Part shown: positions 1 to 26,583 of the stretch, in pieces
Layout: the number at the start of each line of letters is the position of its first letter
Position numbering within the stretch: position 1 is the first letter of the stretch
Origin: PVC group bacterium
Lineage (GTDB): Bacteria > Verrucomicrobiota > Kiritimatiellia > UBA8416
NCBI GenBank assembly: GCA_003567005.1
Contig: PXBF01000048.1
Coordinates: 1-29,263 of the forward strand
DNA: 29,263 bases
Reading direction: 5' to 3'
Notes under the pieces: generated by a model
Told to the model about the DNA's origin: nothing
Database searches by the model: none
The model's input: the letters and a program-made list of their open reading frames with translations, nothing else
Program-made: the position numbers and the translations under genes

Positions 1-122
1 CTTCGGACCGGTCGCGTCGTCCAGTGGCAGATATGCCGGCTTTTGGTATGTGGAAGGACCGGGATGATTTACAGGACGTTAATGAGCATGTCCGGCGTTT
101 GCGGAAAGGGAGAACCTTCTAA
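1..122 (+). CDS. 3-prime end of a type II antitoxin (VapB-like), 5-prime truncated by the window edge
   Basis: Frame 3 is open from the window start and reads ...FGMWKDRDDLQDVNEHVRRLRKGRTF, stopping at 120-122. The stop overlaps the ATG of the downstream PIN toxin (TAATG), which is the usual antitoxin-toxin arrangement. Confidence 0.4.
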   Translation, partial: SDRSRRPVADMPAFGMWKDRDDLQDVNEHVRRLRKGRTF

Positions 123-499
123 TGCTTTTTGATACAGATGTTATGATCTGGGCTTTACGTGGAAATAAGAAGGCCGCTGCGTGCATAGATGAAACCGACA
201 TACTATACATATCGGCAGTCTCCTATATGGAGTTACTCAAAGGGGCACGGAGCAAGAACGAGCAAAAAGCTATTAAGGTCTTTTTGCGCGACTTGAGGTT
301 TGAGCATTTACCGTTAACGGAAGCCATATCTCATCGTGCCGTGATTTATGTCGAAGAGTTTGCTTTGTCGTCAGGGCTAGAGCTTGCGGATGCATTAATA
401 GCTTCTACTGCGTGCGAACAGGGAATCGACCTTTGCACAGCAAATGACAAACATTATCGCGCGGTTTCTGATCTGAGCATACATGTGTTTCGTCCATAA
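122..499 (+). CDS. vapC: PIN-domain ribonuclease toxin (VapC family)
   Basis: 125 aa. The acidic PIN residues are present: FDTDV near the N-terminus, MELLKG, ADALIAST and TANDKH. It is coupled to the upstream small ORF. GC is visibly lower than in the flanking genes. Confidence 0.8.
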   Translation: MLFDTDVMIWALRGNKKAAACIDETDILYISAVSYMELLKGARSKNEQKAIKVFLRDLRFEHLPLTEAISHRAVIYVEEFALSSGLELADALIASTACEQGIDLCTANDKHYRAVSDLSIHVFRP

Positions 500-523
500 A
501 TGATGACATAGTAGGAGGGCTGT

Positions 524-1888
524 ATGTTATATGACTTGAAAACGATCACGAGGTGGGTGGAGCAGCTAAAGGATGCGGTTGAGGCTGCGGATGCAAGTGC
601 TGCGGCAAAGGCCGCGAAGCAATTGTCCTCGCGACGGGTGGCGCGAGAGTTGACGGGGACGGATCCAGTATTCATTGCAAGCATCTTGAAGGATATTGAA
701 GAGGTGAAGGCTGGCCGCATTGCGGGGTATTTACCGGAACCCGTTGCGATGGCGGTTCTGGGTAGTTTGGGGATCGAAGATGCCTCGGCACTGTTATCGG
801 TAATTCCTCCGGATCATGCGTTAGGTTTACTGCAGGATATGGATGAAGAACAGCGCAAGGGTTTAATCGAGCGCATGGATGAGGCCAAACGAGCTGAATG
901 GGAAGCGCGCCGTGATTATGATGCCGCGAGTGCTGGAGCGGTGATGACAACAGAGTTTATTGTCGTTACGCCGGATTCAACGGTTGATGACGCCTTGGAT
1001 GCAATTGCTTCGGCTCCCCCCGAGATCGAAAAAAGCAGCTATGTGTATGTTGTTGATGATGGCGGGCATCCTTTAGGTGTTGCATCGGTCCGCGACTTGG
1101 TGCGGGCATCGCGCAAGGCAACCATGGATAAGGTGATGATCGGCAATTTGCTTGTAGCGCGCACGAATGATAAGGCCAGTGATGCGGCGCGTCTTTTGCG
1201 TAACCGGCGCTATGCCATGCTGCCCATTGTGAATGAAAATGGTGTGTTGGCTGGTGTTTTGACGCTGGATGATGCTGCCGATATTCTCGCGCGTGATGTG
1301 GCGGATCAATTCAGTGGGATGGGGGGCGATACGGGCGATGAGAATTTCTTCACGCGTCCCATGGGGGCGGTGAAGCGGCGGTTGCCGTGGATGGCAGGCA
1401 ATGTTTTCCTGAATCTAATCGCTGTGGCCGTGATCACCGGGTTTGAAGATACGATTGCCCAAGTCGCCATTTTGGCCGCGTTCTTGCCGATGATTACGGA
1501 TATGGGCGGTAACGTCGGTATTCAGTCCTTGTCAGTGGCGATACGCAGCATTGCATTAGGCGAAGCACAGATCCGGGATTATCGTAAGGCGGCGGTCAAG
1601 GAGCTGGTGGTGGGAGCTGTTAACGGTTTAGCGTTGGGCATTCTGTTCGGCGTGATTGCTTTTGCAATGCGCGGGCGGCTGTTGCTGGGCCTAGTTGCAG
1701 GCACGGCACTTGGTGTGAACGTGATTGTTGCCGGTGTGGTCGGTGGTTGCCTACCGTTCCTGATCAAGCGGTTGGGCAAGGATCCAGCCATGATGACGGG
1801 GCCACTGCTGACAACCATCACCGACGTCACTGGCGTCACCATCTACCTCGGCCTCAGCACGCTGTTCATCATGCAACTGGCCGCGTAA
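524..1888 (+). CDS. mgtE: Magnesium transporter MgtE (MgtE_N domain, tandem CBS domains, C-terminal TM channel domain)
   Basis: 454 aa. It has the conserved channel motif PMITDMGGNVGIQS, an N-terminal helical domain, a CBS pair (VVDDGGHPLGVASVRDL, MLPIVNENGVLAGVLTLDD), and an AGGAGG SD 8 nt upstream of the ATG. Confidence 0.9.
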   Translation: MLYDLKTITRWVEQLKDAVEAADASAAAKAAKQLSSRRVARELTGTDPVFIASILKDIEEVKAGRIAGYLPEPVAMAVLGSLGIEDASALLSVIPPDHALGLLQDMDEEQRKGLIERMDEAKRAEWEARRDYDAASAGAVMTTEFIVVTPDSTVDDALDAIASAPPEIEKSSYVYVVDDGGHPLGVASVRDLVRASRKATMDKVMIGNLLVARTNDKASDAARLLRNRRYAMLPIVNENGVLAGVLTLDDAADILARDVADQFSGMGGDTGDENFFTRPMGAVKRRLPWMAGNVFLNLIAVAVITGFEDTIAQVAILAAFLPMITDMGGNVGIQSLSVAIRSIALGEAQIRDYRKAAVKELVVGAVNGLALGILFGVIAFAMRGRLLLGLVAGTALGVNVIVAGVVGGCLPFLIKRLGKDPAMMTGPLLTTITDVTGVTIYLGLSTLFIMQLAA

Positions 1889-1925
1889 TCGCGTAGTGCG
1901 AATGTAAGTTAGATATTGGGCAGCG

Positions 1926-2960
1926 TTATATGTGACATGAATTGTCGCGTAGGGTGGCCACGGCTTCGTTGCGGGTGGTGATGGGTTTGTTGTATGCGCG
2001 GAACAGTTCTTGCATGCGTTGGTTGCCGAAGTCGAGGTTGTGGCTGACGGAATAGAGGGCGTAGAGGGAGGGATCGGTGAATGGGTGATCGAGGTTCAGC
2101 AGGTTGGAGATGGCGGATATGATGGTGCCATATACGTATCCACACCAGAAGGGGAGTGTGATGCTGCGGAAGGTTTTGCCTGGCAGATAGACATCAGCAA
2201 GGATTCGGTAGAATTGTTCGATGGTGGTGTGTTCGTTGTCGACGATGTTGATTGCCCTGCCGGCAGCTTCCGGGGCCGTTGCGGCAAGCAGGGTGGCGGT
2301 GGCGACGGTGCTGACATGTGCCAGGGGCCAGCGATTGGTTCCGCGCCATTTCCCGAAGTGGATGATACAGGGGGCATGACGTAGGAAGTTGACGATGCGG
2401 GGGGTGAGGGTTTTGTCGCCTTGGCCCCAGACTTGCGCGGGCCGGATGATGCTCCATTTTTCAGGGGGTAATGCGCGTTGAAGCATTTGTTCTGCCCGTA
2501 GCTTGTAAACCGGATACGGGTTACGGGGGCGCGGGTTACATGTCAGCTCTTCTTCCTGTTCGCCGTGATAGTCGCGCAGGCCATACACGTCTGTGGTGGA
2601 GATGAAGACAAACCGTTGGCAGTCCAGGGCGCGACTCATACGCACCAGGTTTTCGACGGCCTCGTAATTCGTTGCGCGAAAGGCACTGCGCCATCCGGTA
2701 TCCGAGGCGCGGGCGGCGCAGTGCACGATTGCGTCAAGTTTGGCTCCGTTTACAGCAAGTGTTTTTCCGATCTGATTACGAAATGTTTCTGTGTCTCGTA
2801 TGTCACCGCGTATATAGGTGATTTGCCCTTGGTGGGGCTTGATTGTTGCTGGGATTGTGCGGTGCACGAGTGCAAGCACGTGCCAGCCGTCGTCCAGGAA
2901 TGTGCGCATGATGTGTTCGCCCACGAATCCTGCTGCACCGGTTATGAAAACATGTTTCAT
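1926..2960 (-). CDS. NAD(P)-dependent epimerase/dehydratase-family (extended SDR) oxidoreductase; candidate 3-keto-sphingoid or ketolipid reductase
   Basis: Rossmann motif MKHVFITGAAGFVGEHI at the chosen start (M35 of the 378-aa ORF). The ATG overlaps the stop of the upstream alpha-oxoamine synthase (ATGA). It is the last gene of the minus-strand operon. Confidence 0.75.
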   Translation of the reverse strand: MKHVFITGAAGFVGEHIMRTFLDDGWHVLALVHRTIPATIKPHQGQITYIRGDIRDTETFRNQIGKTLAVNGAKLDAIVHCAARASDTGWRSAFRATNYEAVENLVRMSRALDCQRFVFISTTDVYGLRDYHGEQEEELTCNPRPRNPYPVYKLRAEQMLQRALPPEKWSIIRPAQVWGQGDKTLTPRIVNFLRHAPCIIHFGKWRGTNRWPLAHVSTVATATLLAATAPEAAGRAINIVDNEHTTIEQFYRILADVYLPGKTFRSITLPFWCGYVYGTIISAISNLLNLDHPFTDPSLYALYSVSHNLDFGNQRMQELFRAYNKPITTRNEAVATLRDNSCHI

Positions 2961-4222
2961 GGGATAAGACCGTATTTTCTGCCGCATTCGGCGAAGATGT
3001 TGAGTGCCTTGTCCATTTGTTCGCGGGTCAAACTGTTCATGATGCTGACTCGCAGGCGGCATTCCTTGCGCCGAACGGCGGGGTAGGTGACCACGTTAGT
3101 AAAGACACCTGCGTGCCGCAAGTCCCGCTGTAATGCGCCCAAGATGCTTTCGTTGCCGACTACCACGGGTAGGATGGCCGATCCGGTGCTGCCGAGTTTG
3201 AAGCCGAGTATTTGCAGATTCTGCTGCATGTAGTTGATATTATTCCACAGTTGTCGGCGTCCGGCAGTGTCGGTCTCGAGCAGTTTGAAAACCTCAATGA
3301 GACCGGCGATGGTTGGAGCAGGGATGCTAGTGGAAAAGAAGTACGTGCGGGCGAAAAAGCGCAGGTAGCGGACCATGGCGGAAGATCCGGCGCAATAGCC
3401 GCCGATCGCGCCGGGTGCCTTGCTCAGGGTTCCGCAGGTGAGATCCACATTGCCTTCGCAGTGAAAATGCTCGATCGTACCGCGGCCGGTCGCCCCAACA
3501 ACACCGAGGCCATGCGCATCATCAACCATAAGCCGGCAGTTGTAGGCTTTGGCCAGTGCAACGATTTGGTCCAGGGGGGCAAGATCGCCGTGCATGGAAA
3601 AGACGCCATCGGTGATAATAAGCCGTCCCTGTTGTTCGGCTGGCAGGGCTTTGAGAATCTTTTCCAGATGTTTCATGTTGTTGTGCATGTAGACTTTGAT
3701 GGTAGCGCCGGACAAGCGGCATCCATCAAAGATCGAGGCGTGATTGGCGGAATCATTGATCACGATATCACCAGGACCGCAGAGTGCGGAAATCACCCCT
3801 ATGTTGCCGGAATAGCCGCAGGGAAACATGATGGCATCTTCCGTTTTGTAGAAGCGGGCAATGCGCTCTTCCAGCTCGCGATGCAGCACGGAGGTACCCG
3901 CGTACAGCGAGACGGCACCCATGCCATAGCCAAATTCGTCGGTTGCCTTCTTGCTGGCCGCAATCACTTGCGGATGTGTTGTGATACCCAGATACGAGTT
4001 CGAGCCCAGCATGATGACATCGTGCTCTTGTCCGTCTTTTTCGCGGATGCCTACCTCGGCATTGGCAGCCCCGGTCAATGGCAGGCCGAGCCCGTCGATG
4101 TAGCCTGGATTGGTTTTGCGGATATAGGCATCGAGCCGCTCGACTTTATGAAAGATGTCATAGCGGCCTTGCTCGGGCACAAAGTCCTCGAAACGCATTT
4201 CCTGTTGATCGGTGTCCATCAA
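2957..4222 (-). CDS. PLP-dependent alpha-oxoamine synthase (serine palmitoyltransferase / KBL / BioF family)
   Basis: 421 aa. PLP lysine motif GTLSKA, LMVDDAHGLG, and glycine-rich GSNSYLG. Overall length and architecture fit Spt-like 2-amino-3-ketoacyl synthases. Start and stop overlap the neighbouring genes. Confidence 0.85.
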   Translation of the reverse strand: MMDTDQQEMRFEDFVPEQGRYDIFHKVERLDAYIRKTNPGYIDGLGLPLTGAANAEVGIREKDGQEHDVIMLGSNSYLGITTHPQVIAASKKATDEFGYGMGAVSLYAGTSVLHRELEERIARFYKTEDAIMFPCGYSGNIGVISALCGPGDIVINDSANHASIFDGCRLSGATIKVYMHNNMKHLEKILKALPAEQQGRLIITDGVFSMHGDLAPLDQIVALAKAYNCRLMVDDAHGLGVVGATGRGTIEHFHCEGNVDLTCGTLSKAPGAIGGYCAGSSAMVRYLRFFARTYFFSTSIPAPTIAGLIEVFKLLETDTAGRRQLWNNINYMQQNLQILGFKLGSTGSAILPVVVGNESILGALQRDLRHAGVFTNVVTYPAVRRKECRLRVSIMNSLTREQMDKALNIFAECGRKYGLIP

Positions 4223-5445
4223 TTGCCTTTCTTTTTGTGATAGCAGCGCAACGAGCGGTTATCGTCACAGTATATGGTGCAAAAATTGCAATTTGTACAG
4301 GCCGACCGGATGTCGGGATCCTGTTTGAGCTTGTTGGGGAAGTCCGGTTCGCAGATTAGCGGGCGGCATAAAGAGATACCATCGAGATTGTATTGCTCGA
4401 TGCATTGCCGGATATCGTTGATATCACGAATGCCGCCGACGGAGAAAACGGGCAGGGAGCAAGCTTGCTTGATGGCGGCGGCGGATGCGGCATTATAGGC
4501 ATGGCTGAAGGGCAGGAAGCGCTTGCGGTAGGTATCCGCACGCAGGCGTTTCCAGAGACCGCGAATGAGGGCAGGGATTTTATTGAACATGGGATTGACG
4601 TTGAGTACCAGATCGACGGGGCATGCCCCACGAATAATATTGAGGGCATATTCCATTGTGCCATAGCTGATTTCCACGGCATCAATACGCAATGGCTCCA
4701 AACGGCGCACAGTCTCGATGGTGTCTTCCTGCCGGATGCCGGGCACACGGTCTTCCGTTGCGCTTAGCTTTACGAGAATCGGATAATTGTGGCCGCAAGT
4801 GTTCTTTACTGCCTGTATGGTGCGTTCGAGAAAGAGGTTGCGATCCTTGCCCCATTGATCTTCGCGGTCATTGGTCCAAGGCGACAAGAATTGGTGGATC
4901 AGATAGCCGTGGGCGGCGTGCAACTGCACGCCATCGAATCCAGCATCCTTGGCACGCTTGGCGGCGTTTCCAAACTGTTGGATGATGCTTTCGATATGCG
5001 GCGTTTGCAGAACATGCGATTTTTCGCGGAAGTAGGAACATGCGCGTCGCGATGCACCATATACTTTGTTTTGGGTGATACGCTTGCGTGTCTGGCGTCC
5101 GGTGTGGGCGAGCTGCATGAATAGACAGGTTTCTGGATGCTGCTGCTTTACATGCTGAACGATGGCGTGCCAGGCGGCTTGTTTTTCGGGGGTATCGATG
5201 CCGCATTGGCGCGGCTGCATGGCGCGGCCCTCCTGCGAGATGTGGACGAACCCGGTGACGATGGTGCCTGTACCGCCAGCCGCGAGATTGGAATAAAGCC
5301 TTGCGAGGGACATCTCTGGGATGCCATCGGAATTTCCCATTCCCTCGTATGTTGCAGAGCGCACAATTCGGTTGGGCAACGTGATGGTACCCAGAGTCAG
5401 TGGGCTGAAGAGCTTTTCTATGGTGTCTTGCGTTGCTTGCTGCAT
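4219..5445 (-). CDS. Old Yellow Enzyme-family NADH:flavin oxidoreductase with C-terminal 4Fe-4S Cys cluster (FadH / 2,4-dienoyl-CoA reductase N-domain type)
   Basis: OYE N-terminus LFSPLTLGTITLPNRIVRSATYEG, HAAHGYLIHQFLSP, and a C-terminal CTNCNFCTIYC (CxxCxxCxxxC) cluster. Start is set at MQQATQD (5443-5445). The 172-codon upstream extension in the six-frame ORF reads through palindromic repeat A and the neighbouring gene and is treated as spurious. Confidence 0.75.
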   Translation of the reverse strand: MQQATQDTIEKLFSPLTLGTITLPNRIVRSATYEGMGNSDGIPEMSLARLYSNLAAGGTGTIVTGFVHISQEGRAMQPRQCGIDTPEKQAAWHAIVQHVKQQHPETCLFMQLAHTGRQTRKRITQNKVYGASRRACSYFREKSHVLQTPHIESIIQQFGNAAKRAKDAGFDGVQLHAAHGYLIHQFLSPWTNDREDQWGKDRNLFLERTIQAVKNTCGHNYPILVKLSATEDRVPGIRQEDTIETVRRLEPLRIDAVEISYGTMEYALNIIRGACPVDLVLNVNPMFNKIPALIRGLWKRLRADTYRKRFLPFSHAYNAASAAAIKQACSLPVFSVGGIRDINDIRQCIEQYNLDGISLCRPLICEPDFPNKLKQDPDIRSACTNCNFCTIYCDDNRSLRCYHKKKGN

Positions 5446-5446
5446 A

Positions 5447-5530
5447 TCTGCGGCTCGGCGGGGACGTCTCGCCCTACCTTCCGAGTTTGAAGGCATAGGG
5501 TAGGGCGAGCCGTCCTCGGCGAGCCGTGGT
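5447..5530. repeat. GC-rich palindromic intergenic repeat, copy A (about 29-bp stem, 19-nt loop)
   Basis: gcggctcggcggggacgtctcgccctacc / loop ttccgagtttgaaggcata / ggtagggcgagccgtcctcggcgagccg. The arms are reverse complements at about 25/29 positions. The copy lies between the PurM-like gene stop and the OYE gene start. Confidence 0.8.
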
Positions 5531-5579
5531 GGCGTAGTTACGCTTGGAGAATTCCGAGAAAGTTCTTTGATTGGTGCAT

Positions 5580-6572
5580 TCATGTTTTGGCGAGGTATTG
5601 TTGGGTGTATTCCTGTACGGCTGTGACATACGGTTCGAGTGCTGGGTATGCACGCGGGCAAGGGGGCGGCTCTGGAATAGGGCGATGCATTCCGGTGCTC
5701 CGGCTTGCATATATGCCCGGATCCGGCGACGGGATGATATCTGCAATCCGGGTGAATCCGGCTGCTTTCAGCATTTCGGTTTCCTCGTCGGTTAGTGCTG
5801 GTGTGGCAAAGAGTACTTCGTACTCGCCGGCACCGCCCACGATTGCGGCAAGTGCTTGCTCGCCAGCCGTTGCTGCGAAGGCCTGTACGGTTGCGGCGAG
5901 CGGGATATTTGCGAGTTGCAGGTTGATGCGCCAGTCGGGGTTGACGGTCTGCAGGCACCACAAGGCATCCAGGAGCCCGCCGCTGGTATCGATGCCGGCT
6001 GTGGCATAGGGGCGGATCAGGGACGTTTGCTTTGTGCGCAATTCAAATGCCGGAGTAGGCGCACCGGTAAGTACGGCGAGATTGGCATCACCAACCTCGC
6101 CGGTAATCCAAAGGTGTCGGGAGTCTGGACCGAAGCGCCGCAGGATTGGGGCCGGTGCGGTGACTGGACCTGCGGCAAAACCTGTATAGCGCCATGTCGG
6201 ACAGGTGGCCATATCTCCACCGAGTAAAAAGCATTGGGCGGCTTGCAACGTTGCGCTTATTCCATCGGTCAGTTGATCTGCAAACGCGGTGTCCGCATTC
6301 GAGGGGAGTGCGAGCGTATGCAGGAAGAATCGCGGTTCGGCCCCGGTTGCCAGAAGGTCGCTGATGGTGGCGGTGACCAGGTTTGCCCCAAGCTGGCGGG
6401 GATTCTCGGATGTGAAGTGGTCTTCTTCCGGGGTAAACTCATCCATGGTTAAAGCCCAGGTCTGTCCGGCGATGTCAACGAGTTCGGCATCGCTTTCGAA
6501 TAGCGCGTTTTGCTGTTGCGGGTCGCGTTTGAATTTCCCTGCGAATGAGCGGATAAAATCGTATTCGGTCAT
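5580..6572 (-). CDS. PurM-like (AIR synthase-related) ATP-dependent enzyme; ThiL/HypE/SelD superfamily
   Basis: 330 aa. The N-terminal pattern DAELVDIAGQTWALTMDEFTPEEDHF matches the PurM-like N-domain (D-x-A ... TTD ... HF). It also has GGDMA. The ATG overlaps the stop of the upstream kinase gene. Confidence 0.65.
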   Translation of the reverse strand: MTEYDFIRSFAGKFKRDPQQQNALFESDAELVDIAGQTWALTMDEFTPEEDHFTSENPRQLGANLVTATISDLLATGAEPRFFLHTLALPSNADTAFADQLTDGISATLQAAQCFLLGGDMATCPTWRYTGFAAGPVTAPAPILRRFGPDSRHLWITGEVGDANLAVLTGAPTPAFELRTKQTSLIRPYATAGIDTSGGLLDALWCLQTVNPDWRINLQLANIPLAATVQAFAATAGEQALAAIVGGAGEYEVLFATPALTDEETEMLKAAGFTRIADIIPSPDPGIYASRSTGMHRPIPEPPPCPRAYPALEPYVTAVQEYTQQYLAKT

Positions 6573-7621
6573 TACGTGTCTTCCTGTCTCTTTCCTTCCT
6601 CTGCGGCTCGGCGGGGACGCCTCGCCCTACCGGTCGGAGCTGAAGGTGTTGGATAGGGCGAGCCGTCCTTGGCGAGCTGTGGCACGTCTGGAAAGGACTT
6701 GGCATTACATACGCCTCCACAGATCAAGTTTAGCGCTTGTGGCAGCAAGTCAATCTGAATTGGCAGCCAGCCGCGTGGGTCGCCATCGAACTCGACGGCT
6801 TGCGACGTGTTGGCTTCCAGTCGGACGGATGTACCGGTTCGCATAAATACTGCCGGTGATGCTGTAGCGCGTCCGGTGTAGAAGCCCGGGAAAATGCGGC
6901 AGAGGCCTAGTGGCGTGCTGTCGTGAATGGCAACGACGGCAAGTTGTCCGTCAGTTGGCTGCAAGTCTATATCCAGTTTCAATCCTGAAGCAATATAAGG
7001 GTTTTTGAGAATGGCGATATGATTGAAGGATGTGATAGGTAATATTTCATTGTCCAGAACCAGCTTGCAGGGCACGGATTTACTGGTGCATATGGCGCGC
7101 ATGACGCCGGCCCCGGTTCCGAGTGTATCGCCGAGCCATCTGCGGTGACGGTTGGCAAAGGCAGCCACCGTTGCGCCAAGGCCGATGTTGCAACTGCAGC
7201 CAAAGTGTGCGTTGACAGGGGTGGTATCCACGGACGGTAGATATTGTATGCGGCATGCGTCCACGGCGCGTATCTTGCCGTGTAGAAGGGTTTGCAGTGC
7301 CTTCTGTGGATCGACCGGAATGTTGTGGAATCGACAGAAGTCCGGGCTCGTCCCTGCATACAGTACCCCCATGACGAGTTCGGGGTTGCCGGAGAGCAGG
7401 ATGCCGTCGAGAACTTCATTGATGGTTCCGTCGCCACCGACTGCCACAACCGTGCAGGCGCCTCGCGTCTGGCGCGCTACTTCGCGGGCATCGCCCGCCC
7501 CGGTGGTTATGACGGTTTCCAGATCAATGCTGGCTTTACGCAATGCCGCCAGCCAGGGGTCCCAGCGTTTGCGCCCTTTGCCGGAACGCGCTGACGGATT
7601 CATGACCAGCTTCATTTTCAC
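6572..7621 (-). CDS. Diacylglycerol kinase catalytic-domain family lipid kinase (YegS / sphingosine-ceramide kinase-like)
   Basis: 349 aa. DAGK_cat signature VVAVGGDGTINEV and an N-terminal MKLVMNPSARSGKG. The last roughly 35 codons are encoded by palindromic repeat B. The true C-terminus is therefore uncertain. Confidence 0.75.
   Translation of the reverse strand: MKMKLVMNPSARSGKGRKRWDPWLAALRKASIDLETVITTGAGDAREVARQTRGACTVVAVGGDGTINEVLDGILLSGNPELVMGVLYAGTSPDFCRFHNIPVDPQKALQTLLHGKIRAVDACRIQYLPSVDTTPVNAHFGCSCNIGLGATVAAFANRHRRWLGDTLGTGAGVMRAICTSKSVPCKLVLDNEILPITSFNHIAILKNPYIASGLKLDIDLQPTDGQLAVVAIHDSTPLGLCRIFPGFYTGRATASPAVFMRTGTSVRLEANTSQAVEFDGDPRGWLPIQIDLLPQALNLICGGVCNAKSFPDVPQLAKDGSPYPTPSAPTGRARRPRRAAEEGKRQEDT
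6600..6682. repeat. GC-rich palindromic repeat, copy B, embedded in-frame at the 3-prime end of the lipid kinase CDS
   Basis: About 85% identical to copy A over about 85 bp (gcggctcggcggggacgcctcgccctacc ... tagggcgagccgtccttggcgagctg). Same orientation as copy A. Confidence 0.8.
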
Positions 7622-8904
7622 GGGTATATTCCCAGTTTCTCGTAGAGGGTTGTGGGTTCACCGCGCTTCCAGTCCTTGATAAGTTCCTGCGTGATGTGCC
7701 AGGGCAACGGCGTGCGTTCGAGCTTATGTTCGGTGAATAGCTTGTGAATGGCAGCGGCTTGCGTGCAGCAAAGCCAGTCGGCGCATGGGATGTCGAAGTA
7801 GCTGCGCATCCGTTGAAAGATGACGGAGAACGGTTCTTCGTTCACGTTGCCAAATGAGATGTTGAGAAATTCGCAGGGTTGTACTTCGCCGCTGGCCCCG
7901 ATGTAGAAGCGGTCGACCCCGCCCGCCGTGCATCCCAGCACGTGGCGTTGTTCTTCGAACACCTGGGCGGCGAGTGATGGATAATCGTGCATGCGGGAGC
8001 TGTTATAGCGTACATGTTCCTCTTGGATGCGGGCGACGAGGTCGTTTTCTGTCTGCATGTTGGTTTCGCGTCCGAGCCATGCGCCGGATGGCTTGGGATG
8101 AATGAGCTGCACGTAATCGCAATCCAGCTCGCGCGTGAAATCCATCAGCTTGTCCAGTCCGCCCTGCCGGATTTCGTCTTCGGAGAGAACCGAGTTGCAG
8201 GTTGCCACGAGATTAAGGTCCCTGCATGCGCGCACGGCATCGCAGGCAATATCGAAAGATCCTTGCTTGCGTGTGAAGCTATCATGCACGGCCGGGTCAG
8301 TGGAGTGGATTGAGACCATGAGTCCGAAAAGTCCGGCTGCTTTCAATTCTTCCAGCATGCCTGGTTTGATATTGGCACCCGTGGTATTGATCCAGATCTC
8401 GCTGCGTGCATCCAGTGCCTGTACGAGCTTCAGGAGCCGTGGGTAGCGGATGAATGGTTCGCCGCCTTCTATATCGAACATGGCTACCCCGGCATCGCGT
8501 ACCTGCAGGGCGGTTTGAATCATGGCGTCTTCGTCGATGTCGACGGCCGGATCGTTTTTCTGGTAGCAGTGCTCGCAGTCGTACGAGCAGGCCTTGGTCA
8601 TGGAATATACAATCGTTGTGGGACCGGGCGGTGTTTTCAGCAGCTTACTTTCGATGGCATAAAAGAAAGCGGGCGAGGGATAGGCAGGCAGGTAAAGGTG
8701 TAATTTGTAGCCATTGAAGACACGCACCGGCTTGTTGTGACGGAAGACCAGCAGCAACTGCAGGGCGCGTCGCAGAAAGCGGCAATATGCCAATGGGGAG
8801 GAAAAGTGTTTTGGGCGCAGTGCGTAGTAAAACGGAATATGAACGATAATACGCACGTATAGCAGCAGTTTTCGGAATCCTGTCAGGAAATGGGCATTTT
8901 TCAT
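7618..8904 (-). CDS. Radical SAM enzyme with N-terminal hydrophobic/membrane-associated extension and C-terminal Cys-rich (SPASM/twitch-like) region
   Basis: 428 aa. CxxxCxxC radical SAM motif CSYDCEHC after about 100 hydrophobic/basic residues. The downstream GGE-like FDIEGGEP fits SAM binding. The C-terminal Cys run is GCTAGG...PCEFLN...CADWLCC. ATGA overlap with the kinase gene. Confidence 0.8.
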   Translation of the reverse strand: MKNAHFLTGFRKLLLYVRIIVHIPFYYALRPKHFSSPLAYCRFLRRALQLLLVFRHNKPVRVFNGYKLHLYLPAYPSPAFFYAIESKLLKTPPGPTTIVYSMTKACSYDCEHCYQKNDPAVDIDEDAMIQTALQVRDAGVAMFDIEGGEPFIRYPRLLKLVQALDARSEIWINTTGANIKPGMLEELKAAGLFGLMVSIHSTDPAVHDSFTRKQGSFDIACDAVRACRDLNLVATCNSVLSEDEIRQGGLDKLMDFTRELDCDYVQLIHPKPSGAWLGRETNMQTENDLVARIQEEHVRYNSSRMHDYPSLAAQVFEEQRHVLGCTAGGVDRFYIGASGEVQPCEFLNISFGNVNEEPFSVIFQRMRSYFDIPCADWLCCTQAAAIHKLFTEHKLERTPLPWHITQELIKDWKRGEPTTLYEKLGIYP

Positions 8905-9872
8905 GATTTGGCATCCTTGTATTGGTCGAACAGAAATCCGATAAACACATAGCTGGCACTGAAGAGATACAGGGCCAAGGTTCCATTAAAGATGGCAATC
9001 AGGGCGATTTGCCCTGCGACACAAGCGCGGATATTGGTTGCCAGACTGAAGTAGGTGCGGTCGCCGACCGGATTATGGAAGAATAGCAGTGCCGTCCAGA
9101 GTTGTAGGAAGAGGGTCATTACCGCGCAGAATACGAAGTCGCGCACAAAGAGAATGTCACGCAGCGGCAGCCATCCGGCCCGTGCGAACAGCAGGAACAG
9201 CAACGTTGGCAGAAACGCGCCGATCAATCCGGCATAACGTGCCACATTCAAGCCGTAGCGCACGACAAATGTATTTTTTCCGGCAGCCTTGTCGCCCTCA
9301 TAGTCCTTGAAGTAGGTGTAGAACGTCATGAGTCCGTTCATGAAGGCCACAAGGATAAATCCGCTAATGCGGTTGCTGGTAAACACAGGAGTCGGCATGG
9401 GCCCGGCAGCCAGGAAACCGTAGACGGTACACATGGCGATGGACAGCCCGAAAATTGCGTTGCCGGTAAGCGACCAGGCTTTCGCATACTCATACAGAAT
9501 GTTCAGCAAAACGCCGAGGATGACCGGTACTACAGACCAAGGGTTCAGCAACCAGGAAATCGCCACCACGCCTGCCATGAGCACGCCGGATACAATCAGG
9601 GCATTGCGCGGATTCAGTTCGCCGGTAACCATGGGGCGGTTGGGGGCGTTGATGCGGTCTTCCGGCAGCCCTAGGTAATCGTTGATAATCTGGTTAATGC
9701 CCCAGCTCAGGAAAAGCATGATCAACAAAAGGGATCCGCGTGCGTGGCTGTAATGATCCGGCATGGCGAACTGGTAGAAGGATACGCCAACCCAGCCGGC
9801 AATGCCGGTAATGAAAGCATAGTAAAGCCGCATTGATTTGATATAAGCCTTCCAAAAGCTGATTGTTAACAT
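8901..9872 (-). CDS. UbiA-superfamily membrane prenyltransferase
   Basis: 323 aa and polytopic. First Asp-rich motif NDYLGLPEDRINAPNRP, second motif FKDYEGDKAAGKNT. It has 8-9 predicted TM helices. Confidence 0.75.
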   Translation of the reverse strand: MLTISFWKAYIKSMRLYYAFITGIAGWVGVSFYQFAMPDHYSHARGSLLLIMLFLSWGINQIINDYLGLPEDRINAPNRPMVTGELNPRNALIVSGVLMAGVVAISWLLNPWSVVPVILGVLLNILYEYAKAWSLTGNAIFGLSIAMCTVYGFLAAGPMPTPVFTSNRISGFILVAFMNGLMTFYTYFKDYEGDKAAGKNTFVVRYGLNVARYAGLIGAFLPTLLFLLFARAGWLPLRDILFVRDFVFCAVMTLFLQLWTALLFFHNPVGDRTYFSLATNIRACVAGQIALIAIFNGTLALYLFSASYVFIGFLFDQYKDAKS

Positions 9873-9889: not shown

Positions 9890-11743
9890 TTATTCTATTG
9901 TCATATCTGCGGAAAAGGTGTCGGTACCATTGCCTGAGGTGAAGTAGCGTTTGCTTACGGAAAATCTGATATTTCGGGCATTCTGGATTGCATCGGGGGC
10001 AAGGCGGAATTGGTAGGATCCGGGTGCTTTGCGGGTGAGTTCGATGTCGGCGTATTTTTGTTCGTCGATTTGGACCGTGATGGCATCGGGGGATACGAGG
10101 GTATTCCCTCTATTGGTGCGCACTTCCAGCCGCCCGGTCAGGCTGCCATCGTCGGCTGTCGTTACGGATGTAAGCGATGGCTGCAAGGTATGCGGGAAGG
10201 CGATGGCTTGGTAGAAGAACTCGATGGGGAAGGCGCGGTAGGCGGGGCCGAGAAAGCTGTCTTCGAGATAGCGATGCGTGGCGTTGCCGAATGTTTCGCG
10301 ATAGATGAAGTGCATGCGGTCGTCAATTTTCTTGTAGCCCACGATTACACAGGCATGTACGCCTTTGGCGCGGATGCCGCTTTGCGGGTTGCCGCGCCGG
10401 TCGCGTTGCATGTGTTGGGCATAGAGAGGTCCCCAGGCATGCAAGGCGGCAATCAATAGCTGTTCCTTTTCCTTGGTGCTGCGTTCGCGAGCACTCCATT
10501 CAGCGATCTGGAAATACGCGTCATCATTGTCCTCATAGCGGCGTTCATCCCTGCGGCGTGTGCGGCGTGCCATCAGGTTGCGGTCGATGACCATCAACAA
10601 AGGGTGCTCATCCATAGCAAACGGGTTTTCTCCGTGTTCGTATTGCATATGATCTGGGACGAGCGGATCGGAGACGATCCCTGCATTGGTTTCTGATAGG
10701 ATGCGGGCATATCCGCGCGGGGAATAGGGGATGGGTTCACGGGTGACGCGGTCGCGCCCGACGAGTTTGAAGTTGCCGCGTGCATGGAGGTGCAGGCCAG
10801 TCAGGTTCCCAAAGCCCATGACGGTGCGCGCCACAATGCCGGCCTCTTCCCTGGCGCGTTCAAAGTAGATGCTTTCCAGATGGCGGGGGTTGATGCCGTA
10901 TTCCTGCTGTCCGCCTGCGGCATTGCGATAGGGGGAAAGTGTGCCACCGGTGGTAACGATCCACCAATCGGCCAGATAGCTTGCTGCGATTGCGAGACAT
11001 TTGGAGGTGGCCGTGCGGCGCCCGAGCGAATGACGCATTCGCACGCCGGCTTCTCGCCCGATTTCTCGATTGAATGCCTCGACGTTTTCGCGACGTTCCT
11101 CCTGCGTTTTCTTTGGCAGATCGAGCACGCCGTCGACCAGGTAAGCGTCGGGTGCATGCGGATTAATCGGAATCCCGGTCGTGAATTGCGTAACGGGCGG
11201 AATCAATTCGTTCAGTCGAGGGATCGCATTTACCGTTGGGGCTCTTTGCCATTGTCGTGCTGAAACACGAAAAAGTGGTTCGTGTTGAGGGGTGAACATG
11301 ATCGGGCTTTGGATCGAGCCGTCTTCTGGATCCACGGCAAAGAATCCGCCAATCTCGCGTTTCATATTCAGTCCAACGAGCCAGCGTGCAACACGCTCGG
11401 TTCCGTCGGGTGCCATAACCATGACCGGTCTGGCTACGGAGGTTTCCGGAAAACGTTGCAGGACTTTTCGGTAATCCTGCCAGTAGGTATGCGGAGGCGT
11501 GTCATTCGTCTTGTGATCCGCTTTTGCCCGTTCAGCGGCGATATGATCGGCAATGATGGCACGTGCTGCTTCGGCTGGTATCGCTGCCTCCAAGGTCGGC
11601 AATTCGAGAAATATATTTAGGCGTTGATTCTTGATGATCCCGGTATCAGCAGCTGAAACCATCATTCGAGCCCCGATGGCAAGCAGGATACATGCAATGA
11701 TCAACGTTTTGAAAACTGCCTGGGGTGCATTCCGCATTTGCAT
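9890..11743 (-). CDS. Large secreted/membrane-anchored hypothetical protein with possible papain-like (Cys/His) fold
   Basis: 617 aa. N-terminal signal/anchor MQMRNAPQAVFKTLIIACILLAIGARMMVSAA. Candidate catalytic Cys (TSKCLAIAASYLADWW) and His (GVHACVIVGYKK). No confident family assignment can be made from sequence alone. Confidence 0.5.
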   Translation of the reverse strand: MQMRNAPQAVFKTLIIACILLAIGARMMVSAADTGIIKNQRLNIFLELPTLEAAIPAEAARAIIADHIAAERAKADHKTNDTPPHTYWQDYRKVLQRFPETSVARPVMVMAPDGTERVARWLVGLNMKREIGGFFAVDPEDGSIQSPIMFTPQHEPLFRVSARQWQRAPTVNAIPRLNELIPPVTQFTTGIPINPHAPDAYLVDGVLDLPKKTQEERRENVEAFNREIGREAGVRMRHSLGRRTATSKCLAIAASYLADWWIVTTGGTLSPYRNAAGGQQEYGINPRHLESIYFERAREEAGIVARTVMGFGNLTGLHLHARGNFKLVGRDRVTREPIPYSPRGYARILSETNAGIVSDPLVPDHMQYEHGENPFAMDEHPLLMVIDRNLMARRTRRRDERRYEDNDDAYFQIAEWSARERSTKEKEQLLIAALHAWGPLYAQHMQRDRRGNPQSGIRAKGVHACVIVGYKKIDDRMHFIYRETFGNATHRYLEDSFLGPAYRAFPIEFFYQAIAFPHTLQPSLTSVTTADDGSLTGRLEVRTNRGNTLVSPDAITVQIDEQKYADIELTRKAPGSYQFRLAPDAIQNARNIRFSVSKRYFTSGNGTDTFSADMTIE

Positions 11744-22957: not shown

Positions 22958-23731
22958 TTACTGTTCGCGGATGCGGTAGAAGCCGATGGGGTCCAGTACG
23001 GGGATTTCGCCTTTGCGTCCGTCGTCGGTGATCCGCATGGGGACGATGATTGGTTGGAATGGTTCGTGCATCAGGTCCCGGGTGTACTCCACGACATATC
23101 CGACTCCTGGTTCGCTATTCCAGGTTAAGGAGAATCTTGCGGGGTCGGCTGGGTCGCGCGCAAGTCGACTGACAATAGTGGGAGGGGATTCGGGATCGCG
23201 CGGGGTATAGGTTCCCGCAGTACCTGCTCCTGTTTCAAGGTCGGTCTGACTATAGGTTGCATCTTCCGCGTCAGGAGGTTCATAAATATAAGTCACGGCT
23301 TCAAATGCAATCGTCCATTCTTCTATAGCTTCTGATGAGCTACCGATCGAGCCTCGGCTCTCATGGTCAACCAGTCTGGCAGACTCCAGAATGATATGGA
23401 TCGCGTTGGTTTCCGCTGCGTCATTGTTGCGTTCGCCGGAGAAAGCTAATTCGATACGCCCGAATTGGGTTCCCGTGGAAAGGTCCTGTATCAGCAATGG
23501 CGTTGCTTTGTCCAAGTTTCGCTGAACCTTAATATGTGCCACTGCATTTGTCGTTTGCCCGGGAAGAAGGGAAAGTTCATGTAGAGCGCTCCAGCCGTTA
23601 TCATCCGGTGGTGTGTTGGCAAAGCCTGGGCGGGCGGGGTCGAAGCGTATCCAGGCCCTCTCGGCATAACCCGTTTGTATGGTAACTGCTGTCACCACAC
23701 ATGCTGTTACGATTAGTAGGCAACGTTTCAT
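22958..23731 (-). CDS. Secreted Hcp-like domain protein with C-terminal extension
   Basis: Signal peptide MKRCLLIVTACVVTAVTIQTGYA. Hcp-like core HIKVQRNLDKATPLLIQDLSTGTQFGRIELAF. ATGA coupling to the upstream Hcp-like gene. Confidence 0.5.
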   Translation of the reverse strand: MKRCLLIVTACVVTAVTIQTGYAERAWIRFDPARPGFANTPPDDNGWSALHELSLLPGQTTNAVAHIKVQRNLDKATPLLIQDLSTGTQFGRIELAFSGERNNDAAETNAIHIILESARLVDHESRGSIGSSSEAIEEWTIAFEAVTYIYEPPDAEDATYSQTDLETGAGTAGTYTPRDPESPPTIVSRLARDPADPARFSLTWNSEPGVGYVVEYTRDLMHEPFQPIIVPMRITDDGRKGEIPVLDPIGFYRIREQ

Positions 23732-24372
23732 TCGTCTGCACTTGGAGGTGTGTTCAGTATTTCAACACTGACATCAGCGTCAGATCCCAATCCCAGATGC
23801 CGTCCATCTTCGCCACGCGGCGAGTAGACGACTTCCACTTTCCCGAAAGACAAGGATAGCGTCTCGCTGGGTGTGTCACCATGTTCGGGAACGCCGTCGC
23901 CGTCGTCATCAGGGTCGCGGTAGTCCGGGCCCCAGTTGTATTCGTAGCCAACAACATGCACGCCCTCACTGAGCCTGATCTCCTTAAAAGGCACTGTTAC
24001 GGCAGCATCACCTTCCCCATATGTTTTGCGGATGATAAGGCGGACAGGTTCGTCAGGGGTATCCAGCGGCTCATCGGTAAAAGCTGCGCGGAATAGTTTT
24101 GGGGAGGCTTTATCGTAGGCTTTGCGAAAAACAAAAGGCCTCACCACTCTATTCTCATGCCCGTCTGGGGCTTGACCACCGTGGCGGCCAGGGTTGGAGG
24201 CGCCCCACGACCATGAATAAATTTCAATTTCGTCTTCATGAGCGGGCTCACGCGACTCTCCTTCGACACCTTCAATCTTCAGAAAAGCATCCAAGGCGGC
24301 ATGCGTTGGGGCTGGGGTTAACACAAACAAGAGGGCGAACAACACGACGTAGGTTAATGTATGTGTTTTCAT
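23728..24372 (-). CDS. Secreted Hcp1-family protein (T6SS tube protein fold) outside any T6SS locus
   Basis: Signal peptide followed by DAFLKIEGVEGESREPAHEDEIEIYSWSWGASNPG...FRKAYDKASPKLFRAAFTDEPL, which matches the Hcp1 signature (FLKIDGIKGES...KDEIEVLSFSWG...DKASPKL). Confidence 0.65.
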   Translation of the reverse strand: MKTHTLTYVVLFALLFVLTPAPTHAALDAFLKIEGVEGESREPAHEDEIEIYSWSWGASNPGRHGGQAPDGHENRVVRPFVFRKAYDKASPKLFRAAFTDEPLDTPDEPVRLIIRKTYGEGDAAVTVPFKEIRLSEGVHVVGYEYNWGPDYRDPDDDGDGVPEHGDTPSETLSLSFGKVEVVYSPRGEDGRHLGLGSDADVSVEILNTPPSADE

Positions 24373-24787: not shown

Positions 24788-25474
24788 ATGCTCATACAAA
24801 CATTTCTCATTCGGGCTGTTGTCGCCCTGCTGCTTGGATTCCTGATTGGCGTCGAACGTCAATGGCGGCAGCGTCATGCGGGTATCCGCACATATAGTCT
24901 TGTTTCGTTGGGGTCGGCATTGTTCGTGATGCTTTCCATCCTGCTGGGGGAGGGTGCCGACTCGGCCCGTATTCCTGCCCAGATTGTTTCCGGGATCGGT
25001 TTCATTGGTGCGGGTGTCATTTTCAAGGGCGGGCAATCCGTCTCCGGGCTCAACACGGCGTCGACCATTTGGACCACGGCTGCGGTCGGTGCATTGGCAG
25101 GGTTCGGCTTTCTACCACATGCTGGTGTCGGCGCGGTATTTGCCTTGGGTATCAACACCGTACTACGCCGCACATACCGTTTTTTCGAGCCGCGCAGCAC
25201 GGATACCGAACGGGGATATCGCATCTGTATTACTTGTGGAGCCGATGCCGAGCATCATATTCGCTCGGTGCTACATGCCATGCTGGCGACAGAAGGCATT
25301 CAGTTGCATGCACTGGCAAGTGAGGACCTTGATACACCCGACTATGTATTGATTCAGGCTAAGAGCCGCATGCTGCCAACGCAAACAGCAAATCTCGAAA
25401 GAATTGTTTCGCGCATCGCGCAGGAAAAGACAGTCCGCGCTGTGCGCTGGGAAACCCAAAATGACGACGAGTAA
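24788..25474 (+). CDS. mgtC: MgtC/SapB-family membrane protein
   Basis: GVERQWRQRHAGIRTYSLVSLGSALF matches the MgtC signature. Four to five TM helices, then a cytoplasmic C-domain. Confidence 0.85.
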   Translation: MLIQTFLIRAVVALLLGFLIGVERQWRQRHAGIRTYSLVSLGSALFVMLSILLGEGADSARIPAQIVSGIGFIGAGVIFKGGQSVSGLNTASTIWTTAAVGALAGFGFLPHAGVGAVFALGINTVLRRTYRFFEPRSTDTERGYRICITCGADAEHHIRSVLHAMLATEGIQLHALASEDLDTPDYVLIQAKSRMLPTQTANLERIVSRIAQEKTVRAVRWETQNDDE

Positions 25475-26536: not shown

Positions 26537-26583
26537 ACATTAATAACAGGGATGCATTTATCAACGAATAAGGAGTTGTGATC

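Follow-up and report, generated by a model that had tools for sequence, protein, structure and literature searches.

Several radical S-adenosylmethionine (SAM) enzymes are known to modify membrane lipids. The headings and passages of a 2026 review on these radical SAM (rSAM) proteins cover Tes, Mss, Gms, GrsA/B, Gmm, Cds, HpnH, HpnJ, HpnP/R, Jaw5 and the ladderane candidates, and as told there each known lipid-modifying rSAM enzyme explained a class of membrane lipids or of geochemical biomarkers (PMC13459092). The same passages describe Tes as having a SPASM domain, a domain with two auxiliary clusters, and infer the same for Gms (PMC13459092). Mss, the bacterial membrane-spanning lipid synthase, is represented by Tmari_0825 and WP_129545148.1 (PMC13159169). 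Here we describe an rSAM enzyme encoded in a 29,263-nucleotide stretch of DNA from a PVC group bacterium of the Kiritimatiellia (contig PXBF01000048.1, assembly GCA_003567005.1). We call the whole stretch the window. The rSAM gene is one of seven that we call the cassette; the others encode a UbiA-family prenyltransferase, a soluble lipid kinase, a ThiL-like enzyme related to AIR synthase (AIRS), an ene-reductase of the Old Yellow Enzyme (OYE) family, an alpha-oxoamine synthase (AOS) and a short-chain dehydrogenase/reductase (SDR). Partners of the kinds found here (a synthase like serine palmitoyltransferase (SPT), a lipid kinase, a ThiL-like enzyme) are not mentioned for lipid rSAMs in the headings or passages of the review (PMC13459092). 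A literature search in full text, which left out the subscription-only part, found no paper on the cassette.

How does the cassette compare with pathways that are understood? The bacterial sphingolipid module, as in Caulobacter, comprises Spt, an acyl carrier protein (ACP), the epimerase-fold reductase CerR and a ceramide kinase of the diacylglycerol kinase (DAGK) fold. The cassette has counterparts of each: an SPT-like AOS, an ACP in one variant, an epimerase-fold SDR and a DAGK_cat kinase. Unlike that module, it has no ceramide synthase (N-acyltransferase) and carries UbiA, rSAM, ThiL-like and OYE proteins instead; moreover, its AOS lies under all SPT cutoffs and scores equally for Kbl and BioF. 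The other obvious comparison is with archaeal lipid synthesis. The nearest characterised relative of the cassette UbiA is the digeranylgeranylglyceryl phosphate synthase (DGGGPS) of M. jannaschii (PDB 6m31), yet the cassette protein scores far under the cutoffs for the archaeal step, has a different motif (NDx5ED) and occurs in bacterial hosts. Genes for glycerol-1-phosphate dehydrogenase or geranylgeranylglyceryl phosphate (GGGP) synthase are absent from the cassette.

The rSAM enzyme itself is most like proteins from quite different settings. SkfB (PDB 6efn) and BlsE (PDB 7vob), both twitch-domain rSAM enzymes, are only 15-20% identical to it; the substrate is a peptide for SkfB and a nucleoside sugar acid for BlsE, both proteins lack anything equivalent to residues 1-95, and both come from clusters, for ribosomally synthesised and post-translationally modified peptides (RiPPs) or nucleoside antibiotics, that are unrelated to the cassette. 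Viperin (RSAD2) uses CTP as its substrate and lacks an auxiliary cluster; next to it, the window enzyme has the larger N-terminal domain, which packs against the core.

What is new in the cassette is a conserved N-terminal domain on a twitch-type rSAM enzyme within a widely transferred pathway of lipid type. The pathway probably makes an undescribed membrane lipid that is prenylated and sphingolipid-like. We tentatively favour a reading in which the rSAM protein is a membrane-surface enzyme acting near the polar end of the phosphorylated long-chain lipid intermediate that UbiA prenylates.

Architecture of the radical SAM enzyme

Pfam finds Radical_SAM in residues 100-233 of the enzyme (E = 2.2e-15) and Fer4_12 as well. 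Three features place it in the radical SAM superfamily: a CX3CX2C motif (CSYDCEHC, or C106-X3-C110-X2-C113), a GGE SAM-binding motif and a partial TIM-barrel fold. Its AlphaFold2 model has a mean predicted local distance difference test (pLDDT) score of 92.1 and a predicted template-modelling (pTM) score of 0.92. The exact protein sequence returned no record in a look-up. Its family, by contrast, is large, with 1078 homologous protein clusters in a database clustered at 90% identity. The best 120 homologs are 59-91% identical at full length, and even between phyla family members share about 60% identity or more. Homologs of 426-432 residues match the query along its whole length (100%), which confirms the start codon and shows that the extension of about 100 residues ahead of the cluster motif is genuine. 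Conservation is given below for the alignment of the window enzyme with the best 120 homologs (121 sequences).

Six cysteines are invariant in the alignment: C106, C110 and C113 of the SAM-binding motif and, near the C-terminus, C325, C344 and C379. C380 is kept in 99% of the sequences and C374 in 75%, and the remaining cysteines (221, 227, 236 and 262) vary. C344 lies within ..QPCEF.., and C374, C379 and C380 lie within CADWLCC. The spacing C325-X13-G339-X4-C344 is an invariant instance of the half-motif CX(9-15)GX4C that marks the SPASM/twitch subgroup, and the Pfam SPASM model matches residues 329-366 weakly, though above threshold (23.4 bits against a cutoff of 21.5). The protein has no CX2CX5CX3C, by which a second auxiliary cluster would be recognised, and it also lacks the seven or eight cysteines of a full SPASM domain. 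With the half-motif present and the second-cluster motif absent, the enzyme is of the twitch type, with one auxiliary cluster. From its sequence it is best described as carrying a SAM-cleaving [4Fe-4S] cluster on C106/C110/C113 plus one auxiliary cluster on C325, C344 and C379. Relatives at 25-39% identity keep only three of the C-terminal cysteines (325, 344 and one at 377 or 379); C380 is likely a fourth ligand specific to the clade.

An initial annotation of the gene, made from the DNA letters alone, had proposed an auxiliary domain like SPASM or twitch and suggested counting conserved cysteines in homologs. The four cysteines C325, C344, C379 and C380, the CX13GX4C spacing and the best fold and profile matches (SkfB, BlsE, PqqE and MoaA) bear the proposal out, and they narrow it to a twitch-like domain rather than a full SPASM domain. 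The same annotation had described the N-terminal extension as hydrophobic, aromatic and basic and had taken it to suggest membrane association. Here the outcome is mixed. The extension is real, conserved, aromatic and basic, and its charge and aromatic residues fit peripheral docking. It is not simply hydrophobic, however, and no membrane-spanning segment is predicted.

Within this extension, residues 31-95 are better conserved than the catalytic core: their mean column identity is 0.76-0.86, compared with 0.74 in the core, and the motif FRHNK-V-(x5)-GYKLHLYLPAYPSxAF is nearly invariant. In the AlphaFold2 model the region is a folded helical domain packed on the enzyme, made up of a helix (9-28), a second helix (37-53), a hairpin (60-67) and a third helix (78-88), all with pLDDT of 94-97. 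Searches of Pfam and the PDB with residues 1-95 give nothing even at E <= 10, and matches to known rSAM proteins, whether structural or by sequence, all begin at residue 90 or later. The initial annotation had left room for a soluble enzyme of a well-characterised rSAM family with a poorly conserved N-terminus; we find no strong match to such a family, and the conserved N-terminus speaks against it as well.

The best 19-residue Kyte-Doolittle window anywhere in the protein reaches 1.19, under the usual transmembrane threshold of about 1.6, and only 14 of the 121 sequences reach 1.6 or more. On this hydropathy scan we reject a transmembrane anchor or an integral membrane protein. Residues 1-95 carry a net charge of +14 (homolog mean +13.5, range 8-19), whereas the remainder of the protein averages -8.9; aromatic residues make up 17% of this region and 9% of the rest. 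By composition, then, the extension is cationic and amphipathic, not transmembrane, which suggests that this basic, aromatic domain docks peripherally on the membrane surface.

A far wider set of rSAM proteins of about 400 residues, at 25-35% identity, also has helix 2 and the PxxPSxxF motif, so the N-terminal domain marks a larger uncharacterised family. Judging by domain content and neighbours, this wider family has diversified into other contexts. Among distant relatives of 28-34% identity (P0167, P0202, P0252 and P0132), fusions to class I SAM-dependent methyltransferase domains occur and one protein of 1467 residues has a DUF362 domain; one relative at 33% identity stands beside a ThiF-like gene, outside the cassette context.

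To which known enzymes, if any, does the protein belong? Its best fold and profile matches include SkfB, SuiB, BlsE, PqqE, CteB and MoaA, with query-normalised TM-scores in Foldseek of at most 0.53. Run against PDB sequences, the family profile finds SkfB (4e-14, residues 96-367), then BlsE, MoaA, PqqE and viperins; Tes, MqnE and BtrN are not matched at E <= 1. NCBIfam scores all fall far below their cutoffs: NirJ2 leads with 89.3 bits (cutoff 500), followed by GeoRSP (83 against 400), AhbD (71.6 against 500) and NirJ (64.2 against 515), with NirJ1 and AhbC further down the list. HpnH (TIGR03470) scores 46.7 bits against 225.05 over residues 82-267, the prokaryotic viperin model 37.9 against 180, and RiPP maturase models 30-50 against 300-850.

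We conclude from these comparisons that the enzyme belongs to no characterised family among those compared; Mss and GrsA/GrsB fall outside the comparison. It is not Tes or GDGT-MAS, given the lack of a sequence match to Tes (PDB 7tom) at E <= 1 and the single auxiliary cluster. HpnH is rejected on its score and on the absence of hopanoid genes nearby, NirJ, AhbC and AhbD on their scores, and the MqnE/MqnC enzymes of the futalosine pathway likewise do not include it. Matches to viperin, MoaA and PqqE are far under curated cutoffs or no better than a generic SPASM/twitch resemblance. The list of known enzymes drawn up for comparison in the initial annotation thus yielded no family match for Tes, HpnH, MqnE or MqnC, and the nearest proteins by fold and profile proved to be SkfB, BlsE, PqqE and MoaA.

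The seven-gene cassette and its distribution

In the window the seven genes form a tight operon of about 8 kb on the minus strand, in the order UbiA-rSAM-kinase-AIRS-OYE-AOS-SDR (Table 1). The rSAM gene, second in line, shares 4 nucleotides with each neighbour: its start overlaps the UbiA open reading frame (ORF) and its stop overlaps the kinase start. Overlaps of this kind are typical of translational coupling. A scan of the operon region for promoters and terminators gave nothing above chance.

The UbiA protein is matched best in NCBIfam by PRK12884 and DGGGP synthases, all under cutoff (81, 62 and 58 bits against cutoffs of 269 to 353), and weakly by the ChlG, BchG and MqnP models. M. jannaschii DGGGPS is its sole PDB sequence relative (E = 2.9e-10). 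Canonical UbiA proteins have NDxxDxxxD as their first Asp-rich motif. In the cassette protein Gly replaces the middle Asp, giving N64-D65-x5-E71-D72, and this NDx5ED form is kept across 57 orthologs; the second motif, D190xxxD194, is the canonical DxxxD. The protein therefore looks like a distinct UbiA subfamily. We do not count it as a DGGGP synthase, its scores and its motif both speaking against membership, even though that enzyme is its nearest characterised relative.

The other five proteins likewise stay under the NCBIfam cutoffs. The kinase matches the NCBIfam YegS/Rv2252/BmrU model under cutoff and DgkB, YegS, BmrU and AGK in the PDB. For the AIRS protein, the NCBIfam thiL model gives 116 bits against a cutoff of 184, and ThiL structures match with E down to 4e-11. 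YqjM-type ene-reductases and FadH are the PDB matches of the OYE protein. The last 25 or so codons of its gene encode CxxCxxCxxxC-x7-C, whose five cysteines show 92-94% conservation across 50 orthologs; the motif points to an attached [4Fe-4S] site in a protein that lacks FadH's FAD/NADPH domain. BioF, Kbl and SPT models score the AOS at 287-379 bits, all under cutoffs, and its PDB matches are ThAOS (3.5e-81) and bacterial SPT (about 1e-77). We reject membership in SPT: the three models give 351, 332 and 287 bits against 640, 500 and 670, and Kbl and BioF do equally well. A long-chain acyl substrate is suggested instead by the ACP gene next to AOS in one variant and by nearby genes that look, by eye, ketosynthase-like and dehydratase-like. 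Finally, the SDR probably starts at M35 of the longest ORF (1926..3062), since the Rossmann motif follows that residue. Its best NCBIfam matches, an OleD-type 3-oxo reductase and HpnA, are both weak, and its fold is that of a generic epimerase/dehydratase.

In a motif scan of 185,579 species genomes, relatives of the rSAM enzyme turned up in 258, from which we took the best 80 loci. Their hosts include, on the PVC side, Kiritimatiellia, Lentisphaerae/Victivallales, Verrucomicrobiota and Planctomycetota; beyond it are Armatimonadota, Sumerlaeia, Elusimicrobiota (among them the cultured Elusimicrobium posterum Dip510), Riflebacteria, Auribacterota, Acidobacteriota, Zixibacteria, Gemmatimonadales, Eisenbacteria, Alphaproteobacteria and one metagenome-assembled genome of Desulfovibrio. 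The cassette has spread horizontally among anaerobic bacteria of more than 10 phyla.

Co-occurrence was scored by tblastn of the window proteins on these 80 loci and three found earlier (n = 83). The kinase is the most constant partner of the rSAM gene, present in 78 loci, followed by UbiA (74), AIRS (70), AOS (62), OYE (60) and SDR (52). Gene order is nearly constant, and most absences fall at contig ends. All-against-all clustering of the neighbouring ORFs revealed no eighth conserved gene, and no conserved small ORF that could encode a precursor peptide occurs in the 83 loci. As a side observation, a gene like that of the glycyl radical enzyme pyruvate formate-lyase (PFL) occurs in five of the 83 loci, its link to the cassette being uncertain. 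In L001 (18209-21290) and, in an armatimonadote, L002 (505-3759), it stands beside a GFO_IDH_MocA oxidoreductase gene a few kilobases from the cassette. In L003 (1-846) it is cut by the contig end; L089 (1-207) has the GFO/IDH/MocA gene only.

The association outlasts both sequence divergence and reordering of the genes. With rSAM proteins 38% identical to that of the window, L089 and L090 have the order AIRS-SDR-rSAM-UbiA-OYE-ACP-AOS-kinase, the ACP gene lying directly upstream of AOS; L094 (42% identity) has AOS-kinase-[SDR~rSAM fusion]-UbiA. L087 and L088 (5882-10260; 39% identity) combine a flavoprotein like geranylgeranyl reductase (GGR), the kinase, the rSAM enzyme and a DGGGPS-like UbiA, and have no AOS, SDR, AIRS or OYE; these four genes may be the core of the system. 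The Riflebacteria variant runs from a long FadH-like OYE (about 770 residues) through ketosynthase-like and polyketide synthase (PKS)-type dehydratase-like genes to AOS, SDR, rSAM, kinase and AIRS. In L064, L068 and L070, at about 100-6900, these two inserted genes encode a 414-residue protein like beta-ketoacyl synthase and a dehydratase-like hot-dog protein with HxxxGxxxxP, both recognised by eye from the translations. Most Riflebacteria loci have no UbiA within 8 kb, while AOS, SDR and the kinase stay with the rSAM gene. One further relative, at 38% identity, adjoins a PlsC-type acyltransferase.

Several rSAM proteins are fused to their partners. Fusions to UbiA form the clusters P0122 and P0271, which are 79% identical to each other and have 11-12 member sequences each, and the divergent P0123; at L092 a fusion of the P0122/P0271 type has the remaining cassette genes downstream. 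P0124 is a fusion to the SDR. In the UbiA fusions the first rSAM helix follows the last UbiA hydrophobic segment almost without a linker. A fusion made so directly to that segment indicates that the rSAM enzyme sits at the membrane face.

Two further points of the initial annotation can be judged from these loci. Its coupling of the rSAM gene to a UbiA gene holds well beyond the window, in adjacency and in the three independent fusion clusters alike. Its lipid context is strengthened by the DGGGPS-like UbiA, the DgkB/YegS-like kinase and the SPT-like synthase, which in one variant lies beside an ACP gene.

Proposed substrate and reaction of the radical enzyme

Taken together, the cassette proteins suggest the following scheme. 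From an amino acid and either acyl-ACP or acyl-CoA, AOS would form an alpha-amino ketone, which the SDR would reduce to an amino alcohol, a base of the sphingoid type. The DAGK-fold kinase would phosphorylate this backbone, and the DGGGPS-like UbiA would add an isoprenoid chain to the phosphorylated product, as DGGGPS does with GGGP; a phosphorylated lipid acceptor for UbiA is plausible because a lipid kinase accompanies the cassette. Held beside UbiA by its cationic N-terminal domain, at the anionic cytoplasmic surface of the membrane, the rSAM enzyme would cleave SAM reductively, and the 5'-deoxyadenosyl radical would remove a hydrogen from the lipid intermediate at its phosphate-proximal end. 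The outcome might be an oxidation, elimination or epimerisation at a carbinol or amino-carbinol, of the kind carried out by BtrN, DesII, AprD4, BlsE or HygY. The auxiliary cluster would handle the electron, with the SDR as partner reductase.

Why place the chemistry near the head group? The residues that are invariant in the cassette-type clade and not in the wider family (Y114, Q115, D118, N173, H200, N237, K271, R332 and E345) are mostly polar or charged; as putative active-site residues they would favour head-proximal chemistry. The constancy of the kinase as a partner favours it too, as do the three arrangements that fuse the rSAM to the SDR or place the two side by side. Pairs of an rSAM enzyme and an SDR are known to carry out a radical elimination and then a reduction, the logic of AprD4/AprD3 and DesII. 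Head-proximal action is favoured, too, by the nearest characterised twitch enzymes, BlsE among them, which act on carbinol C-H bonds. BtrN, DesII, HygY and SpeY also attack such bonds.

Several points count against this scheme. We draw the substrate and the type of reaction from context, and there is as yet no characterised member of the family or product of the cassette. Two peptide maturases, SkfB and SuiB, are among the top matches by fold. Adjacency and fusion to UbiA, and the minimal cluster of GGR-like flavoprotein, kinase, rSAM and UbiA, are just as compatible with action on the isoprenoid chain. The scheme gives no role to the ThiL-like enzyme and the OYE, and the kinase and the ThiL-like enzyme could together turn a lipid alcohol into the diphosphate that UbiA uses as donor. 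With every cassette protein under its NCBIfam cutoffs, the labels SPT and DGGGPS mean that a protein may work like these enzymes, not that it is one of them. The hydropathy values come from a simple Kyte-Doolittle scan only.

The initial annotation likened the enzyme to rSAM proteins that modify lipid tails, and among the alternatives this is the one we take most seriously, though we consider it unlikely. An enzyme like Tes, Mss, GrsA or Gms would take hydrogen from an unactivated sp3 carbon of the UbiA-attached chain, once that chain had been saturated by the OYE or a GGR-like reductase, and form a C-C bond, whether tail-to-tail, in a macrocycle or in a ring. The lipid context agrees with this, as do the aromatic-rich N-terminal domain and the linkage to UbiA, adjacent in 74 of the 83 loci and fused in P0122, P0271 and P0123. 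The four-gene cluster mirrors the archaeal series DGGGPS, GGR, Tes, and the known lipid rSAMs are, in the passages of the review, of the tail-modifying kind (PMC13459092). Those passages also give Tes, and by inference Gms, a SPASM domain with two auxiliary clusters (PMC13459092), whereas the window enzyme has one. Its clade-specific invariant residues are for the most part polar or charged, not hydrophobic, Riflebacteria pair the rSAM gene with AOS, SDR and kinase and have no UbiA within 8 kb, and the SDR fusion and adjacency fit head-proximal chemistry at least as well as tail chemistry. A little less probable still is a hybrid, an 'archaeol-like sphingolipid' with a C-C-linked, phosphorylated backbone of the sphingoid type and an ether- or N-linked isoprenoid, on which the rSAM step would have no known counterpart. 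Candidate steps are a radical inversion or oxidation of a backbone stereocentre, so that the archaeal-type prenyltransferase accepts the backbone, and the cross-linking of two unlike tails. A soluble substrate such as a cofactor- or sugar-like head group is more doubtful again. The N-terminal domain would then dock a protein or bind a nucleotide or phosphate, and the product would be a prenylated small metabolite, either a substitute for a quinone or cofactor or a signal. The nearest PDB sequence relatives, BlsE, MoaA and viperin, do take small polar substrates, the SDR has the fold of sugar-nucleotide epimerases, AIRS-family enzymes typically use small phosphorylated metabolites, and no transmembrane segment is predicted. 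Set against these are a kinase of a lipid-kinase family, an AOS nearest to long-chain SPT and to ThAOS and linked to an ACP, the ketosynthase-like and PKS-dehydratase-like genes of Riflebacteria, the PlsC-type acyltransferase beside one relative, and the fusion to the last hydrophobic segment of UbiA, which puts the rSAM enzyme at the membrane.

The remaining explanations are weaker. Addition of the adenosyl radical to a prenyl C=C bond, as in HpnH or MqnE, would give an adenosylated lipid to be trimmed downstream. The HpnH match (residues 82-267) reaches furthest into the N-terminal extension, a substrate of the UbiA partner would carry allylic double bonds, and OYE and SDR could process the resulting intermediate; with the HpnH score where it is, we hold this to be improbable. 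Very improbable, in our view, is a tetrapyrrole or quinone enzyme, acting either on side chains in the manner of NirJ or AhbD, with UbiA as an analogue of heme O or chlorophyll synthase, or in a menaquinone route of MqnE/MqnC and MqnP. NirJ2 is the top NCBIfam match, with AhbD, NirJ, NirJ1 and AhbC lower, and UbiA matches the ChlG, BchG and MqnP models weakly. Least credible of all is a RiPP maturase of the SkfB, SuiB or PqqE type that would cross-link a ribosomal peptide recognised by the N-terminal domain. SkfB, SuiB, PqqE and CteB do rank with the best matches by fold and profile and likewise have N-terminal extensions of about 100 residues, but residues 1-95 have no match at E <= 10 to PqqD or the RiPP recognition element (RRE) in Pfam or the PDB, and their order of two helices, hairpin and helix is unlike that of the RRE. 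The 83 loci offer neither a precursor peptide nor any conserved neighbour beyond the seven enzyme genes, whose lipid enzymes are the company kept instead, and the maturase models stay at 30-50 bits where 300-850 are required. We reject this assignment, for AlbA as for SkfB, SuiB and PqqE.

If the scheme of a head-proximal reaction at the membrane surface is true, the cassette would give bacteria a new type of lipid that joins isoprenoid chemistry of the archaeal style to sphingoid chemistry, and it would add a new rSAM reaction at the membrane surface. Orphan biomarkers in sediments could derive from a hybrid lipid of this kind, which could also count as a new exception to the 'lipid divide'. 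The cassette is compact and is present in at least one cultured organism, E. posterum Dip510 (locus L065; NZ_CP152277, about 876.8-894.0 kb), which makes heterologous expression and lipidomics feasible.

Features of the window

Table 1. Positions of the rSAM enzyme, its parts, the other cassette genes and the repeats in the window
Feature	Positions	Strand	Basis or remark
Radical SAM enzyme, 428 aa	7618..8904	minus	ORF with ATG start; Pfam Radical_SAM and SPASM; homologs; AlphaFold2 model
Family-specific N-terminal domain, residues 1-95	8620..8904	minus	Conservation, charge, pLDDT; no Pfam/PDB match
Radical SAM partial TIM-barrel core, residues 96-320, GGEP SAM motif at 147-150	7945..8619	minus	
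CX3CX2C cluster motif, C106/C110/C113	8566..8589	minus	Invariant in 121 sequences
Twitch-type auxiliary Fe-S domain, residues 321-385, C325-X13-G339-X4-C344 ... C374-X4-C379-C380	7750..7944	minus	Cys conservation; Pfam SPASM; SkfB profile match 96-367
UbiA-family prenyltransferase, 323 aa, about 9-10 hydrophobic segments	8901..9872	minus	Pfam UbiA E = 6e-27
DAGK_cat/YegS-type soluble lipid kinase	6572..7621	minus	Pfam DAGK_cat and YegS_C
AIR-synthase-related, ThiL-like ATP-dependent enzyme	5580..6572	minus	Pfam AIRS
OYE-family FMN ene-reductase, 408 aa, C-terminal CxxCxxCxxxC...C	4219..5445	minus	Pfam Oxidored_FMN E = 5e-47; ATG at 5445 read from sequence
Pyridoxal phosphate-dependent AOS (BioF/Kbl/SPT family)	2957..4222	minus	Pfam Aminotran_1_2 E = 4.5e-54
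Extended SDR / NAD-dependent epimerase-family reductase	1926..2960	minus	Pfam Epimerase and 3Beta_HSD
83-nt hairpin repeat, copy 1	5447..5529		Fills the AIRS-OYE intergenic gap
83-nt hairpin repeat, copy 2	6600..6682		Inside the 3' tail of the kinase ORF

The operon of the window contains a direct repeat of 83 nucleotides, whose two copies are 83% identical and each contain a GC-rich palindrome (GGGGACGYCTCGCCCTACC ... GGTAGGGCGAGCCGTCC). The last 45 or so codons of the kinase ORF, which are non-homologous, read through the second copy. The repeat looks like a hairpin element of the repetitive extragenic palindromic (REP) or miniature inverted-repeat transposable element (MITE) type, inserted inside the operon.

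Scans of the window for tRNA genes and Rfam families found nothing. Upstream of the cassette on the minus strand, a 617-residue ORF with a signal- or transmembrane-like N-terminus (9890-11743) ends 17 nucleotides ahead of UbiA. Pfam and NCBIfam offer no match for this ORF, and neither it nor MgtE has a counterpart beside the cassette in the 83 loci. The MgtE genes, which encode two magnesium transporters, and one MgtC gene lie on the plus strand at 524-1888, 24788-25474 and 26578-28005. Two tandem genes like that of Hcp, the tube protein of the type VI secretion system, occupy 22958-24372 on the minus strand. Between 13106 and 22907, on the plus strand, are two tandem PspA/IM30 genes, a YqiJ-like membrane protein, a 664-residue ORF without domains and a protein of 1758 residues with DUF3686, DUF7902 and AAA domains, a group that may form a module for membrane stress or of a defence-like kind.

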